64,000 nt of DNA. Source: Syntrophobacterales bacterium. Its GTDB lineage: Bacteria; Desulfobacterota; Syntrophobacteria; BM002. The DNA lies in contig JASFEM010000001.1 of assembly GCA_050124835.1 (NCBI GenBank), forward strand, positions 15,280 to 79,279, given 5' to 3'. Below, piece after piece: positions 1-60,643 of this stretch (position 1 is the stretch's first letter; each line of letters begins with the position of its first letter). The position numbers and the translations under genes were made by a program. A model generated the notes under the pieces. That model was not told the DNA's origin. It saw nothing but the letters and a program-made list of their open reading frames with translations, and did not search any database.

Positions 1-786
1 CACTCCTTTGACCCTCAACACAAGATCTTCCCCTCGCGCCAACTCCTGCAGCCTGACGTTGTCAGCATGTACTCTTCCCACCACGACCCGTCTGCCCGAG
101 GGAAGTCTCAGATGACGACCCCATTTTAGGAGTTCCACGTCGTGGAGTCCCACATTTTCCTGGGTGGTGAAAAGATCCCTCAACCTGTCGGCAAACCCGG
201 CTTTGGTGAGAATGCACCCGCCACCAGGACTCGGGTATTCCTTGATTCCATAATCAGCTGCTAGAGCCATTTGTCTCTTGCGAGAGCGACCGTGAATGTC
301 CAGCAGCCTCTGGCGATCAACTTTACCCAATTCTTCCGGTATGGTCTGCCAAAGCAACTTGGCACTCAGCGGACGTAAAATATACCCTCCGTAGCCCGAA
401 AGTTTGTCGACGGCCTTGAGCGCATCCTTTCGCTGCGACATTGGGCGCTGGCCCAACACCTCCCCCGTGGCAAGGAAGTCAAATCCTTCTGTCTCCATTA
501 TCTTACCGGCCGTGCGGAGCATGAGGGCGTGACAGTCAATGCAGGGATTCATCTGGCTGCCATAACCGTATTTGGGGTTCTTAAGCATCTCGAGATGAGA
601 TTCTCCAATATCCACCACCCGCAGGGGAATCTCTAGCTGACTGGCCGCCTGCTGCGCACCCTCAGGGCCAAAGAAAGGAGTCTCAAAGGTAATACCGGCC
701 ATCTCGATCTGCTGGTCCTGGAGCACCCTGACTGCCAGCATGCTGTCGAGACCTCCGGACATGAGACCAAGGGCACGAACCCTCAT
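1..786 (-). CDS. PP-loop superfamily ATPase (ThiI/TtuA/MnmA-like sulfurtransferase family), 3' part truncated by the window edge. Starts MRVRALGLMSGGLDSMLA.
   Basis: Reverse-strand translation gives an N-terminal SGGxDS PP-loop motif and a CxxC pair (NPCIDCH). The ATG lies at 784-786 on the minus strand. Confidence 0.7.
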   Translation of the reverse strand, partial: MRVRALGLMSGGLDSMLAVRVLQDQQIEMAGITFETPFFGPEGAQQAASQLEIPLRVVDIGESHLEMLKNPKYGYGSQMNPCIDCHALMLRTAGKIMETEGFDFLATGEVLGQRPMSQRKDALKAVDKLSGYGGYILRPLSAKLLWQTIPEELGKVDRQRLLDIHGRSRKRQMALAADYGIKEYPSPGGGCILTKAGFADRLRDLFTTQENVGLHDVELLKWGRHLRLPSGRRVVVGRVHADNVRLQELARGEDLVLRVKGV

Positions 787-1094: not shown

Positions 1095-1754
1095 CTAGCT
1101 GCCAGCTGTCCTCTGGCCGTGGTCGCAGTGTTCCACCAATGGACAATCCGGGCACTTTGGCTTCCTCGCTGTGCATATTTTCCGACCATGCTGAATAAGC
1201 TGGTGGGAGAAAACCGTCCACTTTTCTCTTGGAATAAGCTCCATCAGGTCAAACTCAATTTTCACTGGATCTCGCTGCCGGGTTAGACCTATCCGCTGGG
1301 TGATTCGTCCCACATGGGTATCGACGACAATCCCCGGCGTATTGAAAGCACTACCCAGAATGACGTTTGCCGTCTTTCTGCCAATGCCAGGGAGCTTGAC
1401 CAACTCCTCGAGGCTGTTCGGCACCTCACCCTTATATTTCTCCACCAGCGCTAAGCCACAGTTTTTCAAGCTCTTGGCCTTGTTCCTGAAGAACCCTGTG
1501 GGCCGTATATCCTCCTCCAACTCGTTGAGAGGACCATTGGCATAATCTGCCGCGGCTTGATACTTCTTAAAAAGGTTTTTGGTCACCTGATTAACCCGCT
1601 CATCAGTACACTGAGCTGAAAGTACGGTGGCCACGAGAAGTTCCAAAGGATTCTTGAAGTCCAAACTACATTTTGCTTTGGGGTACATCTGGTCCAGAAT
1701 TTCAAGTATTGCCGGTACGTTCTTCATACGGTCTCCCCAATCAAAAGACGGCAC
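1095..1754 (-). CDS. nth: Endonuclease III (DNA glycosylase/AP lyase Nth).
   Basis: 219-aa ORF with the HhH-GPD motif (LPGIGRKTANVIL) and a C-terminal 4Fe-4S Cys cluster (CTARKPKCPDCPLVEHC). The true start may be the internal MKNVP. Confidence 0.9.
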   Translation of the reverse strand: MPSFDWGDRMKNVPAILEILDQMYPKAKCSLDFKNPLELLVATVLSAQCTDERVNQVTKNLFKKYQAAADYANGPLNELEEDIRPTGFFRNKAKSLKNCGLALVEKYKGEVPNSLEELVKLPGIGRKTANVILGSAFNTPGIVVDTHVGRITQRIGLTRQRDPVKIEFDLMELIPREKWTVFSHQLIQHGRKICTARKPKCPDCPLVEHCDHGQRTAGS

Positions 1755-1977: not shown

Positions 1978-2448
1978 GTGAATCAGATTTCTGCCCCTCT
2001 TAAAGGCAAAATCGTGGCAGTTTCCACTAGTAGCCGTAAGGGGAAGAAGAAAACAAACCTCGCCCGTTGTGAGCTCTTGGAAAACAAAGGGCTCGACGGT
2101 GATGCACACGCCGGCGACTGGCATCGCCAGGTAAGCCTCCTGGCCACGGAGAGTATTGCCAAGATTCAAGAGAAAGGTCTTGAAGTCGCTCCCGGGGACT
2201 TTGCCGAAAACATCACCACTACCGGGCTCAAGCTCTGGAAACTTCCTTTAGGCACTCAGATTGCCTTGGGAAAGCAAGCATTATTAGAAGTTACACAGAT
2301 CGGCAAAGAGTGTCATGATCGTTGCGCCATCTACCACCAGGTGGGTGACTGTGTCATGCCAAGGGAGGGAATTTTTGCTCGCGTTCTCCGGGGCGGTACC
2401 ATCAAACCTGGAGATGAAATCAGCATTATACTCCCGGCCGGCTCATAA
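1978..2448 (+). CDS. MOSC domain-containing protein (YiiM-like).
   Basis: 156-aa ORF with a MOSC-like beta-barrel signature (GDxHAG, FAENITT, GKQALLEVTQIGKEC). Confidence 0.7.
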   Translation: MNQISAPLKGKIVAVSTSSRKGKKKTNLARCELLENKGLDGDAHAGDWHRQVSLLATESIAKIQEKGLEVAPGDFAENITTTGLKLWKLPLGTQIALGKQALLEVTQIGKECHDRCAIYHQVGDCVMPREGIFARVLRGGTIKPGDEISIILPAGS

Positions 2449-2572: not shown

Positions 2573-2917
2573 ATGATCCTTAACATTGTTTGTCCTTTCT
2601 GCGAGAGAAAGCACCCCATTCCCATGGATTTCGACGATGTGTATACCTGTGACTGTGGAGCCTGCTACAGGATTTGTAGCAGCAATCTCCTTGAAAATGG
2701 ATTGACCCTCATCGCCAAGGAAGTCTGGGAAACCGACTACCTGCCCCTTCCTGAGGAGGAGGAAATGGGATTCTGCCAGGTGGTGGTTAACCGTGAGTTC
2801 GATCAACTCATTTCACTTAAACAGTCAATGGGTGAACCGTCCGAAATGCGTTTCTGCAAATATGACCCGTCCGCGGAACTTGCCCTAGTCTGGCTCAAGA
2901 GACCATTAGGGGGCTAG
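2573..2917 (+). CDS. Small Cys-rich (zinc-ribbon-like) hypothetical protein of 114 aa that ends in Gly-Gly.
   Basis: ORF with CPFC...CDCGAC motifs and a GGAG-type RBS 9 nt upstream. It sits immediately upstream of the B12-radical-SAM gene. Confidence 0.45.
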   Translation: MILNIVCPFCERKHPIPMDFDDVYTCDCGACYRICSSNLLENGLTLIAKEVWETDYLPLPEEEEMGFCQVVVNREFDQLISLKQSMGEPSEMRFCKYDPSAELALVWLKRPLGG

Positions 2918-2946
2918 GATGGTTTAAAACCAAGTGGAATTCAGTC

Positions 2947-4806
2947 GTGGCATCATTTCGACTCGCCCTCATCTCCATGCCCTGGCCGCTGGCTAACCGT
3001 CCTTCAATACAATTGGGAACCCTCAAGAGTTTCCTCAGAGTCAAGGCACCAGACATACAGGTTGACTGTTACCATCCCTACCTCGAGGTGGCCAATCTCC
3101 TGGGGCTGAAGGCTTACAATACCATCGCCGAGCGGACATGGGTGGCAGAGTCCGTTTACGCTTATCTGTTTAACCCGAAGAGAAGACCTGAGATAACTGA
3201 GCTAGTCTCCAAGGAATACCGTGCCGGAGGGCATCCTCCAGATCTTGAAAATATCTCTAGACAAATTCACCGCTTGCACCAAAGAAAGCATCTTAATTCG
3301 GCCTGGTCTTCTTATGATCTCATCGGTCTTTCTATCTGTCTTTCCCAGTTGACCTCATCTCTCTATATGATTAGGGAGATCCACAGGCATCATCCCCATT
3401 GCCTCATAGCGGTTGGCGGATCCAGTTGCTCCGGCGAACTGGGTTACTCGCTCCTTGCCAACTCACCCGAGATCGACTTCGTGGTGAGTGGAGAGGGTGA
3501 ACTGCCACTTTTGACTTTAATCAACCGAATCAAGAATGACGACTCTAAAGGTGATGACTCTGCTGGCCTGCTTTGGCGGGATAAACAGGGTAATGTCACC
3601 GGAGGTGGGCTGAAACAGCTGTCGAACCTAAAAGAACTTCCTGTGCCAGACTACACCGACTATTTTGAGCAATTAAGCCGTCAGTCTCGATTGTTTAATC
3701 TTATTCCCAATTTACCGGTGGAAACCTCTCGAGGATGCTGGTGGCACAGAGTAAAGTCTGGCACGGTCGATCGTGCTTGCAAATTCTGCAATCTTAATTT
3801 GCAGTGGCGAGGGTACAGGAGCAAAGAACCGACTCAAGTAGCGCGGGAAATGGAAGAGTTGGCTCGCAAACACTCTAGTCTGAAATTCTCCTTTGCTGAC
3901 AACATTCTTGACAGCCGGAAGCTCAAAGGACTCTTTAAATCTATCACTGAGTTAGATCGGAGCTTCGAGATCTTTACTGAACTAAGGGCATCTGTCTCTC
4001 GTGGCGACCTCATTCAGATGCGGAGAGCCGGGGTCAATCGGGTCCAGATTGGAGTTGAGGCCTTGAGCACCAGCCTCCTTGCCAAAATAAACAAAGGGAC
4101 CACGGCCATCCAAAACATTGAGGTGATGAAACACTGCGAGGAACTGGGTATCCACCATTCATCCAACCTTATCCTAGGCTTTCCAACAAGCGACAGCAGG
4201 GATGTTGAGGAAACCCTTGACAACCTCGAGTTTGTCCTACCCTACCTACCTCTTCGCAAGGTCCGTTTCTGGCTGGGGCAAAACAGCCCGGTGGACCTTC
4301 ACCCTGAACAATTTGGCATCCGCAGGGTGGCCAATCACCCGTACTACAAAAAGTTGCTACCGAACTCGCTCGCAGATTCACTCTGCTTAATGATAAAAAC
4401 TTACATAGGCGATCGCACCAAACAAAAGAAGCTCTGGATGCCGGTAGCTAGGGCTCTTGACCGCTGGCAAGAGCAGTACCACTCTCTGCGAAAAGACCAA
4501 TTCCCGGCTCCTTTACTTGGCTATCGTGACGGTGGAGATTTTCTCTTAATCCGAAGGCGAAGCAAAAATTACCAGATGGAGACCTTTCGACTCAAGGGCT
4601 ACTCACGGGGTATTTATCGACTCTGTGAAACACGTAGAACTTTGGGCCAAATCCTCCATGAATTTCAAAACGTCTCTTCAGATAAGCTGGAGAATTTCAT
4701 TTCACATATGGTTGAAAAACGGCTCATGTTTCGAGAGGGTGATCAGGTTCTGAGTCTGGCAGTGAACGAGGAACCGCACAGGGTGTTATGCGACGCCGGA
4801 AACTAA
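2947..4806 (+). CDS. B12-binding-domain radical SAM enzyme with a C-terminal RRE/PqqD-like region (RiPP-maturase-like).
   Basis: 619-aa ORF. The N-terminal B12-binding-like region (CLIAVGGSSCSGE) is followed by an atypical radical-SAM cluster motif, CWWHRVKSGTVDRACKFC (C-x14-C-x2-C). A C-terminal roughly 150-aa domain follows. Confidence 0.7.
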   Translation: MASFRLALISMPWPLANRPSIQLGTLKSFLRVKAPDIQVDCYHPYLEVANLLGLKAYNTIAERTWVAESVYAYLFNPKRRPEITELVSKEYRAGGHPPDLENISRQIHRLHQRKHLNSAWSSYDLIGLSICLSQLTSSLYMIREIHRHHPHCLIAVGGSSCSGELGYSLLANSPEIDFVVSGEGELPLLTLINRIKNDDSKGDDSAGLLWRDKQGNVTGGGLKQLSNLKELPVPDYTDYFEQLSRQSRLFNLIPNLPVETSRGCWWHRVKSGTVDRACKFCNLNLQWRGYRSKEPTQVAREMEELARKHSSLKFSFADNILDSRKLKGLFKSITELDRSFEIFTELRASVSRGDLIQMRRAGVNRVQIGVEALSTSLLAKINKGTTAIQNIEVMKHCEELGIHHSSNLILGFPTSDSRDVEETLDNLEFVLPYLPLRKVRFWLGQNSPVDLHPEQFGIRRVANHPYYKKLLPNSLADSLCLMIKTYIGDRTKQKKLWMPVARALDRWQEQYHSLRKDQFPAPLLGYRDGGDFLLIRRRSKNYQMETFRLKGYSRGIYRLCETRRTLGQILHEFQNVSSDKLENFISHMVEKRLMFREGDQVLSLAVNEEPHRVLCDAGN

Positions 4807-5825: not shown

Positions 5826-6044
5826 TTGCGGATTTCGGATTGCGAATTAAAGAAAGGTGCAAGGCACAGGGCACAAGGCACAAGGTAAAAAAGATAGAAT
5901 TCAGGAGTCAGTAGGCAGGAGCCAGGAGAAAAGAGAGATTCGATTTTAATCTTTTCATTCTGGATTCTGTCTCCCGGATTCTGACTCCTCGCTACTTAGT
6001 TTGTCGCGGCTAAAAGCCGCTCCCACAGAGTACTGAAACCTGAT
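5826..6044. repeat. Roughly 220-bp intergenic insertion between livH and livM. It holds the dispersed-repeat family 'A' 50-mer at 5837-5886 plus inverted GGAGTCAG/CTGACTCC arms.
   Basis: The 50-mer ggattgcgaattaaagaaaggtgcaaggcacagggcacaaggcacaaggt matches 10201-10250 at 47 of 50 positions. The spacer is made of heptamer words (acaaggc). Confidence 0.7.
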
Positions 6045-10190: not shown

Positions 10191-10200
10191 ATGAGATTTT

Positions 10201-10250
10201 GGATTGCGGATTAAAGAAAGGCGCAAGGCACAGGGTACAAGGCACAAGGT
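10201..10250. repeat. Second copy of dispersed repeat family 'A' (50-mer), followed by a ctatgcc heptamer array.
   Basis: 47 of 50 positions match 5837-5886. Confidence 0.75.
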
Positions 10251-25699: not shown

Positions 25700-25877
25700 G
25701 TCAGCAGGCAGTAAGGCGTGAATGGTCACGCGCAACAATACCGAACCAGAAACCACCTGGCGCAAGGCTTAGGGCGCAAGGCACAAGGAGTTGCCTTGTA
25801 AGGAAGATTTTTAAATTCCCTGAGCCTTTAGCCTTGAGCCTTATGCCTCAGACCAAATGACTATTGACCAATGACCA

Positions 25878-60149: not shown

Positions 60150-60353
60150 TTAAAGATGGCACTCCTGAGCGAACTCCGGACACGCAGACTTTACCTGCTC
60201 AGTGTGCACCAGACTACACTCAGGACAGGTGAACTCGATGTTCTCCCTATCGATGGTTTTGGACTCAATCTCCTCCGCAGTGAGATGGTAAATTGAGCCG
60301 CAAGCACATTGAGGGCAAGTTCCCTTGACCTGGTAGCGCTTCTTCTCGGCCAT
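60150..60353 (-). CDS. Small zinc-ribbon protein (two CxxC pairs).
   Basis: CPQCACGS...CPECS motifs. The start was chosen at MAEKKRYQ. Confidence 0.45.
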   Translation of the reverse strand: MAEKKRYQVKGTCPQCACGSIYHLTAEEIESKTIDRENIEFTCPECSLVHTEQVKSACPEFAQECHL

Positions 60354-60643
60354 GAACAAATCCTTTTGCTGTTTGGCTATCTGCTTGGTTTGTTTTGGCG
60401 CTAACAATGCCTAAGCCCAGAGGGTTTGTCAAGGGCAATTGTCTATATTTGTCTTCGGACAGCTATGCACTGAGATTTTAACTGGTCACGTTACCTTCAA
60501 AGTAGAGCAATCGCTCAAAAAAATTAGTAAAAACTTGATATATCGATTTTTTTTGGTATTTACAGGTTATATGGAACTTTACAGCTAAATAAACTGAATT
60601 TTCGCGCTTGAATTTTTTTCACTAATCGGTAAAGTTCTCGATG

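Follow-up and report, generated by a model that had tools for sequence, protein, structure and literature searches.

Radical S-adenosylmethionine (SAM) enzymes that depend on cobalamin (B12-rSAM) and bind a co-encoded peptide or protein have been described, such as TmoD with TmoA (PMC9303977) and MpcB with MpcA (PMC10849626). Genome-mining tools routinely report matches to TIGR03975, the model for B12-rSAM C-methyltransferases that mature peptides made on the ribosome and modified after translation (RiPPs), as RiPP clusters. Bacteriocin-type clusters have a grammar of their own, which includes an exporter with a fused protease (PMC3023750), and in a metagenomics study, biosynthetic gene clusters (BGCs) called by the antiSMASH TIGR03975 rule were discarded upon manual inspection as likely false positives (PMC9426513). 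Here, we describe a TIGR03975 locus at positions 2573 to 4806 of a 64,000-nt stretch (hereinafter, the window) of contig JASFEM010000001.1 from a Syntrophobacterales bacterium, in which the gene for a 619-aa protein (the rSAM gene) follows the gene for a 114-aa protein with eight Cys residues (the small gene). A sequence-only reading of this DNA had likened the two genes to a RiPP-maturase cassette. By comparative analysis, the locus is instead a vertically inherited two-gene operon of Syntrophobacterales-type Desulfobacterota, and the reading that we favor, with a probability of about 0.4, is that the enzyme C-methylates the co-encoded putative metalloprotein as an optional protein modification. 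What is new here is the pairing of a known enzyme family with a conserved eight-Cys protein in a core-genome locus.

Family Assignment of the Enzyme

Both open reading frames (ORFs) named in the sequence-only reading, the one of 619 aa and the Cys-rich one of 114 aa upstream of it that ends in Gly-Gly, are present in the window (Table 1), and the proposed membership of the larger protein in the TIGR03975 type was borne out. The protein matches TIGR03975 with 379 bits (E = 4e-113) against a curated cutoff of 281.85, and the match is full length, with residues 7 to 606 aligned to profile positions 2 to 606 of 606. Its N-terminus, MASFRLALISMPWPLANRPS, agrees with those of its homologues, of which 2362 were found; the NCBI name is "RiPP maturation radical SAM C-methyltransferase," and an identical protein is recorded under the same name in a Syntrophobacterales metagenome-assembled genome (MAG). 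The predicted combination of an N-terminal cobalamin-like domain with a radical SAM core likewise stood. The core is recognized by PF04055 (Table 1), the match to the B12-binding domain PF02310 is weak (26.9 bits, below the gathering score of 32.1), and the nearest solved structures by sequence are those of the cobalamin-dependent rSAM enzymes OxsB (E = 9.5e-8) and TokK. Models of the B12-rSAM enzymes of primary metabolism, with which a BchE/HpnR-like protein would have to be grouped, scored far under their cutoffs (72 bits vs. 481 for BchE, 71 vs. 578 for HpnJ, and 53 vs. 650 for HpnR), as did the Mmp10-type model TIGR04014 (48.5 bits vs. 360). By family, the 619-aa protein is a bona fide TIGR03975 cobalamin/radical SAM C-methyltransferase, a new member of a known family, and C-methylation of a ribosomal peptide is its family-predicted activity.

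Linkage and Loss of the rSAM Gene

We surveyed 16 genome loci, 80 metagenome loci, and several individually fetched contigs, counting as rSAM-less those loci that have at least 400 bp of sequence downstream of the small gene and no rSAM gene directly after it; 6 loci were too short to decide. In 61 loci, the next gene after the small gene is the rSAM gene, whereas 36 loci are rSAM-less. Within this clade, every rSAM-bearing locus (61/61) has the small gene directly upstream, and the respective rSAM proteins form a single clade in a neighbor-joining tree. In groups A and B, in which the small protein resembles that of the window, an rSAM gene is found in every locus with enough sequence. The surroundings of the pair vary on both sides: a MOSC-domain gene (in the window and in L001) or, in group C, an ORF that we denote z60 is inserted upstream, and a Liv importer, secretin, POR, or OmpA is encoded downstream. 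Despite these rearrangements of the flanks, nothing has been inserted between the small gene and the rSAM gene, and the junction is intact down to ~45% identity. In several lineages, the stop codon of the small gene overlaps or abuts the start codon of the rSAM gene (TGATG in L001 and L002, TGAATG in L020, and TAGATG in L021); some members of group A have spacers of 117 to 235 nt at this junction. The two proteins evolve at similar rates; for instance, between the window and L003, the rSAM proteins are 50% and the small proteins 53% identical. In the closer comparison of the window with L004 (CP070735.1, the chromosome of MAG bin40, to which the window is closely related), the small protein, with 99.1% identity, is the more constrained of the two, the rSAM protein being 94.8% identical.

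The small gene also persists where the rSAM gene is missing. In Syntrophobacter fumaroxidans and Desulforhabdus amnigena, it occupies the same slot, in the order HcyBio, PP-loop ATPase, ThiI-like gene, nth (on the opposite strand), and small gene, followed by a phosphoribosyltransferase gene, and no remnant of an rSAM gene was detectable at these two loci. In L065 and L086, the OmpA gene that is normally located after the rSAM gene directly follows the small gene. On the small-protein tree, the rSAM-less loci sit in two or three places. Because the universally conserved residues are equally conserved in the 36 rSAM-less loci, the small protein has a function independent of any neighboring rSAM gene.

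Two positions of the small protein vary with the presence of the enzyme gene. Both belong to the motif FCxVVV, the VVV of which (Val70 to Val72) is encoded at window positions 2780 to 2788. In raw counts, with kinship ignored, residue 70 is Val in 60 of 61 rSAM-linked loci and Ile in 25 of 36 rSAM-less loci, and residue 72 is Val in 52 of 61 and Ile in 34 of 36, respectively. By these counts, residue 70 is under strict constraint only in loci with the enzyme gene. Among all columns of the alignment, these two alone stand out against all rSAM-bearing groups. A second correlate of the enzyme gene is z60 itself, which encodes a 60-aa zinc-ribbon protein (CxCxxCG…CxxCG, with an acidic C-terminus) and is located between nth and the small gene; its family matches are to generic zinc ribbons only. 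All 14 rSAM-bearing loci of group C have it, whereas the 36 rSAM-less loci, groups A and B, and the window do not. Because the retained small gene is situated between z60 and the rSAM gene, the loss of both took separate deletions, a pattern which suggests that z60 depends on the enzyme, whereas the small protein does not.

The rSAM sister clades D and E, ~48% identical and of the same architecture, are encoded at other, unrelated loci. In clade E (Desulfobacteraceae type), the rSAM gene is closely followed by a conserved ORF for an acidic protein of 60 aa (L022:7925-8107 and L024:7063-7245), and a secreted protein of 158 to 170 aa is encoded upstream; either could be a clade-specific partner or substrate.

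The Eight-Cys Protein

No Pfam or NCBIfam family matches the small protein. Its homologues amount to 41 clusters in a single-sequence search and at least 206 in a profile search, and include Sfum_1063 of S. fumaroxidans MPOB and a protein of D. amnigena; a literature search for Sfum_1063 and Sfum_1064 returned nothing. Conservation runs along the entire length of the protein, with no hypervariable core, and the invariant residues include C7, P8, F9, C10, P17, F20, C26, C28, G29, C68, V71, F76, R93, F94, K96, L103, and W107. All eight Cys residues are kept in 99 of 125 clusters. Among them, C7, C10, C26, and C28 are essentially invariant, whereas C31, C35, and C95 are lost jointly in one sublineage (patterns CCCCSGCC and CCCCSGCS). 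Because the latter three disappear together while the former four stay, the Cys pattern suggests a zinc-ribbon-type site and a second site linking one half of the protein to the other. The matches of the family are weak and subthreshold. The zinc ribbon of the LysW carrier was hit by 11 of 20 members, with a best E of 0.006; further matches are to fdxN, the CSL zinc finger, and Trm112. Two members are named "ferredoxin" by the Joint Genome Institute (JGI).

The Gly-Gly end, which had been taken for a leader-type feature, is real in the window, where the protein ends in KRPLGG, but is confined to the window's lineage. The homologues have no GG and end in KRP, KRPF, KRPY, KREN, or RLF; among the aligned homologues, only P0121 (99% identical, 114 aa, from the window's lineage) has the LGG tail, and in L004, L027, and L030, the tblastn match also covers residues 1 to 114, so these are exceptions besides P0121. 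Because the small protein is conserved over its full length, has the Cys sites, and does not conserve the GG, it is probably a folded metalloprotein, with putative metal sites, rather than a leader-plus-variable-core precursor. The view of the small ORF as a precursor could thus not be upheld, the more so as its eight Cys residues, in two apparent metal sites, are under the same constraints in the 36 rSAM-less loci. For annotation, the lesson is that a terminal GG in a single sequence is no evidence of a leader peptide.

Two other candidate roles were rejected. A carrier protein of the LysW or pearlin kind is disfavored by the variable C-terminus and by the absence of ligase or PEARL enzyme genes nearby; the LysW model NF041070 gives 14.3 bits against a cutoff of 75, matching the N-terminal zinc ribbon only, and the acidic C-terminal attachment residue of LysW/ArgW is not conserved (the C-termini being KRP, KRPF, KREN, RLF, or LGG). 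A GG-ended sulfur carrier similar to ThiS or MoaD was dismissed because the GG end is lineage specific.

An AlphaFold2 (AF2) model of the small protein has predicted local distance difference test (pLDDT) values of 67 to 76 over residues 1 to 30, 66 over residues 31 to 40, and below 50 over residues 77 to 99. AF2 confidence is low in the highly conserved C-terminal half (residues 67 to 111), and the segment 77 to 99 was not placed by AF2 despite its strong conservation. A conserved segment that cannot be modeled fits a region that would fold on a partner.

The C-Terminal Winged Helix and the Cluster Motif

The C-terminal part of the enzyme had been compared with the precursor-recognition element (RRE) typified by PqqD, a claim of which one part stood and the other did not. 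In an AF2 model of residues 436 to 619, built from a 16-sequence alignment, residues 524 to 603 form a domain of the order β-β-β-α-α-α-β-β, with strands at fragment residues 89 to 93, 97 to 103, and 109 to 115, helices at 116 to 124, 131 to 137, and 143 to 155, and a β-hairpin thereafter. The pLDDT of this block is 72 to 97, and 89 to 97 over most of the domain. The domain corresponds to TIGR03975 profile positions 522 to 606 and hence is common to the whole family. In PqqD-type RREs, too, a run of three strands precedes one of three helices, and a winged helix with this βββααα arrangement is predicted at pLDDT ~90. In contrast, similarity to PqqD or an RRE was found neither by sequence nor by profile. 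The tail had no match to PF05402 and TIGR03859 at E ≤ 10 in the Pfam and NCBIfam searches, a profile search of the Protein Data Bank (PDB) sequences with the tail found no RRE, and hhalign of the tail with Klebsiella pneumoniae PqqD, the sequence of which was validated at 126 bits against NF002535, gave a probability of 0.3%. Foldseek searches against the PDB yielded generic winged-helix matches only (E ≥ 0.007). The term "RRE-like" holds for the predicted fold topology and is a reasonable structural reading, albeit not an established one.

The cluster motif quoted in the sequence-only reading in place of the canonical CxxxCxxC, CWWHRVKSGTVDRACKFC, is present at residues 264 to 281; a recount gives a first loop of x13, not x14, and the motif turned out to be less odd for a B12-rSAM enzyme than had been thought. 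An x13 loop occurs in 118 of the 120 closest homologues, and P0163, an orthologue with the same gene arrangement, has x14. Among 147 diverse representatives (30 to 47% identity), all of which carry SRG-C…C-x2-C, the first loop is x3 in 20, x4 in 36, x12 in 13, x13 in 8, and x14 in 54, and the extremes across the family range from x3 up to x28. In MpcB, a characterized RiPP B12-rSAM enzyme of the clavusporin pathway, the reported motif is the noncanonical CX7CX2C (PMC10849626). Because both diverse TIGR03975 relatives and MpcB show expanded or variable spacing, the expanded loop, while unusual for radical SAM enzymes generally, is ordinary within the family, and a C-x13/14-C-x2-C loop should be annotated as normal for TIGR03975.

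A Proposed Protein Modification, and Its Alternatives

In the reading that we favor, the enzyme would generate a 5'-deoxyadenosyl radical with SAM and its [4Fe-4S] cluster. This radical would remove a hydrogen from a residue of the co-translated small protein, at a carbon that is not activated, and the carbon radical left behind would then receive a methyl group from methylcobalamin. A strand of the small protein would be held by the winged-helix tail in the way that a leader peptide is bound by an RRE. The small protein would itself be a functional metalloprotein, for which methylation is an optional tuning, with no peptide cleaved or exported. Several observations point in this direction: the junction of the two genes is never broken, and the genes are often coupled; a domain of the peptide-docking type is retained in the enzyme; the conserved segment of the small protein cannot be modeled; and the small protein persists after the enzyme is lost. 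The family membership of the enzyme, the adjacency in 61 of 61 loci, the single clade formed by the rSAM proteins with the small gene upstream, the similar rates of evolution, and the counts at residue 70 speak for it as well, and TmoD with TmoA and MpcB with MpcA are precedents. As the methylation site, one could speculatively propose Val70, part of the conserved FCxVVV strand; PoyC reportedly β-methylates valine. More tentatively, and doubtful as a whole, this would be a case of a domesticated RiPP-family maturase, a TIGR03975 B12-rSAM enzyme that C-methylates the upstream eight-Cys metalloprotein in syntrophic Desulfobacterota, possibly at Val70, with a tendency to Ile in the enzyme-less lineages and with z60 as a further client in group C.

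Several points weigh against a modification of the small protein. Clades D and E have no homologue of the small protein within 5 to 6 kb of the rSAM gene, and their substrate must therefore be a different one; conservation of the winged helix is just as strong there. It is z60, not the small protein, that behaves like a dedicated client. Within group C, other columns differ as strongly as Val70, so that the Val70 signal may be phylogenetic. The whole region is syntenic, which makes adjacency weaker as evidence. The RRE assignment goes without sequence support from Pfam, NCBIfam, PDB profile, or hhalign searches, and the AF2 model of the small protein (mean pLDDT 56, from a 20-sequence alignment) is too poor for a fold search. 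Both the modification and the binding are predictions, and we infer the favored reading as a whole.

The same pair could be read with the small protein as a helper of the enzyme, either a redox donor to the [4Fe-4S] cluster or cob(II)alamin, similar to rubredoxin or ferredoxin and comparable to Dph3/Kti11 for Dph1-Dph2, or a zinc-ribbon scaffold of the Trm112 or MpcC kind, with the substrate elsewhere. The eight conserved Cys residues in two sites, the resemblance of CxCGACxxxC to the ferredoxin motif CxxCxxCxxxC, the weak matches to fdxN, the CSL zinc finger, and Trm112, and the JGI "ferredoxin" names would agree with such a role, but all these family matches are far under their thresholds, and the most conserved half of the protein (residues 67 to 111) contains only two Cys residues and no redox motif. 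Translational coupling suggests that the two proteins are produced in fixed proportion, MpcB requires a separate partner protein (PMC10849626), and the fact that clades D and E work without the small protein is what would be expected of an add-on. However, a dedicated helper should vanish with its enzyme, whereas the small gene is kept, under unchanged constraints, in the 36 rSAM-less loci, and a helper therefore requires other clients; moreover, the sublineage that lacks Cys31, Cys35, and Cys95 still has the rSAM gene. We consider the helper role rather unlikely. Somewhat more improbable, in our estimate, is the absence of any direct link between the two proteins, whereby the rSAM gene was inserted beside an older conserved gene and co-inherited with it, and the enzyme methylates an unlinked peptide, protein, or metabolite common to the Desulfobacterota clades A to E. 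The presence of the small gene, with the HcyBio, PP-loop, ThiI-like, and nth genes in synteny upstream, at loci that have no rSAM gene, the occurrence of clades D and E at unrelated loci without the small gene, the long spacers in some group A members, and the judgment of TIGR03975-rule BGCs as likely false positives (PMC9426513) all accord with this view. It sits poorly, however, with a junction that is unbroken in 61 loci, down to ~45% identity and with both flanks rearranged, and with the stop/start overlap in many lineages.

A classical RiPP cassette, in which the 114-aa ORF would be a leader or precursor with Gly-Gly cleavage, or an NHLP/Nif11 precursor would be encoded elsewhere, and the product would be a cleaved, exported, methylated peptide, is highly unlikely. 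The membership of the enzyme in TIGR03975, the location of a small ORF directly upstream, the usual place of a precursor, and the RRE-like topology of the tail are what such a cassette would have, but the GG end is confined to the window's lineage, and the small protein, which shows conservation from end to end as well as two apparent metal sites, has no hypervariable core and is retained without the maturase. Neither a leader peptidase nor an exporter was found near the pair; the transporter encoded there is an importer with a periplasmic binding protein. The distribution of the locus reflects vertical core-genome synteny and is not patchy. No NHLP/Nif11 motif was found among 99 intergenic small ORFs of the 64-kb window, although this is a weak test, made by eye and with regular expressions, so the precursor sought by the sequence-only reading did not turn up in the window. 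The resemblance to a RiPP cassette that this reading had noted also does not extend to the neighbors, which are nth, the MOSC-domain gene, the Liv importer, and PaaK-like ligases in a syntenic core-genome segment. The locus is not a bacteriocin-type RiPP cassette.

Genomic Surroundings

The window belongs to the core genome, with genes for IF-2, PNPase, S15, RbfA, GroES, PPDK, and molybdopterin oxidoreductases. Upstream of the small gene lie the MOSC-domain gene and then nth, and downstream of the pair lie genes for two Liv-type permeases, two ATPases, two PaaK-like ligases, and a periplasmic binding protein. The gene nth is a neighbor of the small gene also in L001, L003, L020, L021, L025, L026, and L107, and the protein at the left edge of the window matches the NFACT-R_2/ThiI-like gene beside nth and the small gene in these same loci. 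Synteny is kept between lineages whose rSAM proteins are no more than 45 to 50% identical. The wider block of HcyBio, PP-loop ATPase, and ThiI-like genes hints at a sulfur-transfer context for the small Cys-rich protein. A search for fusions, that is, for a domain like the small protein inside 267 rSAM homologues, found none.

Table 1. Coordinates of the genes, protein regions, and repeats discussed (window positions unless another locus is named)
Feature	Coordinates	Strand	Basis or remark
Small eight-Cys protein gene, 114 aa	2573..2917	+	ORF confirmed; uncharacterized family, no Pfam/NCBIfam model
Zinc-ribbon-like N-terminal region of small protein, aa 7-35, CPFC-x15-CxCGACxxxC	2591..2677	+	Cys conservation
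Highly conserved C-terminal half of small protein, aa 67-111, FCQVVVNREFDQLISLKQ...RFCKYDPS.ELALVWLKRP, including Val70-Val72	2771..2905	+	Alignments
Leu-Gly-Gly tail of small protein, lineage specific	2906..2914	+	Homologue alignment
Spacer between small gene and rSAM gene, 29 nt	2918..2946	+	No terminator-like site
Gene for 619-aa TIGR03975-family cobalamin-type radical SAM C-methyltransferase, GTG start	2947..4806	+	Full-length match to the hidden Markov model
Cobalamin-binding-like Rossmann segment, aa 122-189	3310..3513	+	PF02310, weak; aligns with OxsB and TokK
[4Fe-4S] cluster motif SRG-C264-x13-C278-x2-C281	3736..3789	+	Sequence
Radical SAM core, aa 276-425	3772..4221	+	PF04055 (Radical_SAM), 58.5 bits
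C-terminal winged-helix domain, RRE-like βββ-ααα-ββ order, aa 524-603	4516..4755	+	AF2 model
Endonuclease III gene nth, conserved divergent neighbor of small gene	1095..1754	-	TIGR01083, 276.7 bits
MOSC-domain gene, between nth and small gene	1978..2448	+	PF03473; otherwise in L001 only
ThiI/tRNA_Me_trans-type PP-loop protein ORF, runs off left edge	1-786	-	Family match
85-aa ORF with two CxxC knuckles, beside groES	60150-60407	-	Subthreshold CSL zinc-finger match
Repeated intergenic element of ~42 nt, GGATTAAAGAAAGGYGCAAGGCACAGGGYACAAGGCACAAGG	5844-5885 and 10208-10249; related run 25760-25790		Sequence repeat
z60	L020:5427-5609, L021:5388-5570, L107:4411-4593		Absent from window

Apart from the pair, the window contains a second small zinc-ribbon protein, the 85-aa ORF beside groES, which is unrelated in sequence to the 114-aa protein and matches the CSL zinc finger (PF05207) with E = 8.5e-5 and 22.6 bits, against a cutoff of 29.2. 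Repeats were observed as well. The copies of the ~42-nt element lie between liv genes and between the two PaaK-like ligase genes, and no such match is expected by chance; a GCAAGGC-rich run at ~25.77 kb is related to this element. The AT-rich intergenic region between the ThiI-like gene and nth (840 to 1040) contains inverted and direct repeats of the GGATTTCG/CGAAATCC type, and words of the form GGATT(T/G)CG, like those in this region, precede the repeat at 5830 to 5850 and 10195 to 10215.

Significance

The locus gives a concrete picture of one "orphan" among the TIGR03975 matches, which here is a vertically inherited operon with a conserved Cys-rich protein and not a peptide-antibiotic cassette. 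If the enzyme indeed methylates the co-encoded protein, bacterial protein-level C-methylation would join the few B12-rSAM protein modifiers, Mmp10 and QCMT, whose modifications are variably present among lineages while the substrate persists, and a tractable two-gene pair would become available for studying substrate recognition in the TIGR03975 family. The small-protein family, including Sfum_1063, merits a family model of its own.

Comparison with Known Systems

As in the TIGR03975/rSAM_ocin_1 family at large, the enzyme combines an N-terminal cobalamin-type domain, an rSAM core with SRG-C-xn-C-x2-C, and a C-terminal domain of ~85 aa (model positions 522 to 606). Unlike in the classical setting of this family, there is no recognizable precursor, protease, or exporter nearby, and the gene has a fixed place in the core genome, after that for a conserved eight-Cys protein. 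With the PqqD-type RREs, the predicted tail shares a three-stranded sheet followed by three helices, but it differs from them in the lack of PqqD sequence or profile similarity, in the extra C-terminal β-hairpin, and in the generic winged helices returned by Foldseek. The expanded first loop of the three-Cys motif reportedly has a counterpart in QueE of Burkholderia multivorans, with CX14CX2C, an enzyme that is said to belong to an unrelated rSAM subfamily and to have no cobalamin domain; in TIGR03975, by contrast, loop length is a variable family trait, from x3 to x28.

Similar in predicted chemistry are PoyB and PoyC of the polytheonamide pathway, described in reviews as rSAM enzymes of class B that add methyl groups to a ribosomal peptide at unactivated sp3 carbons; the likeness is one of description, and their substrate, unlike that considered here, is an NHLP-type proteusin precursor within a large biosynthetic gene cluster. 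The MpcB/MpcC system, compared likewise by description and not by sequence, also features a B12-rSAM enzyme that acts on a ribosomal peptide, with an expanded CX7CX2C motif and a co-encoded auxiliary protein (PMC10849626). Its partner MpcC, however, is a DUF5825 protein that resembles the enzyme's own C-terminus rather than a Cys-rich zinc ribbon, and its cluster encodes a 39-aa precursor along with an S9 peptidase and a transporter, whereas the present locus has none of the three. A functional analogy to the favored reading is given by Mmp10 and QCMT, B12-rSAM enzymes whose substrate, methyl-coenzyme M reductase, is a folded housekeeping protein that they C-methylate (PMC8828468, PMC9401015), although these belong to other B12-rSAM subfamilies and act on another substrate in other organisms.

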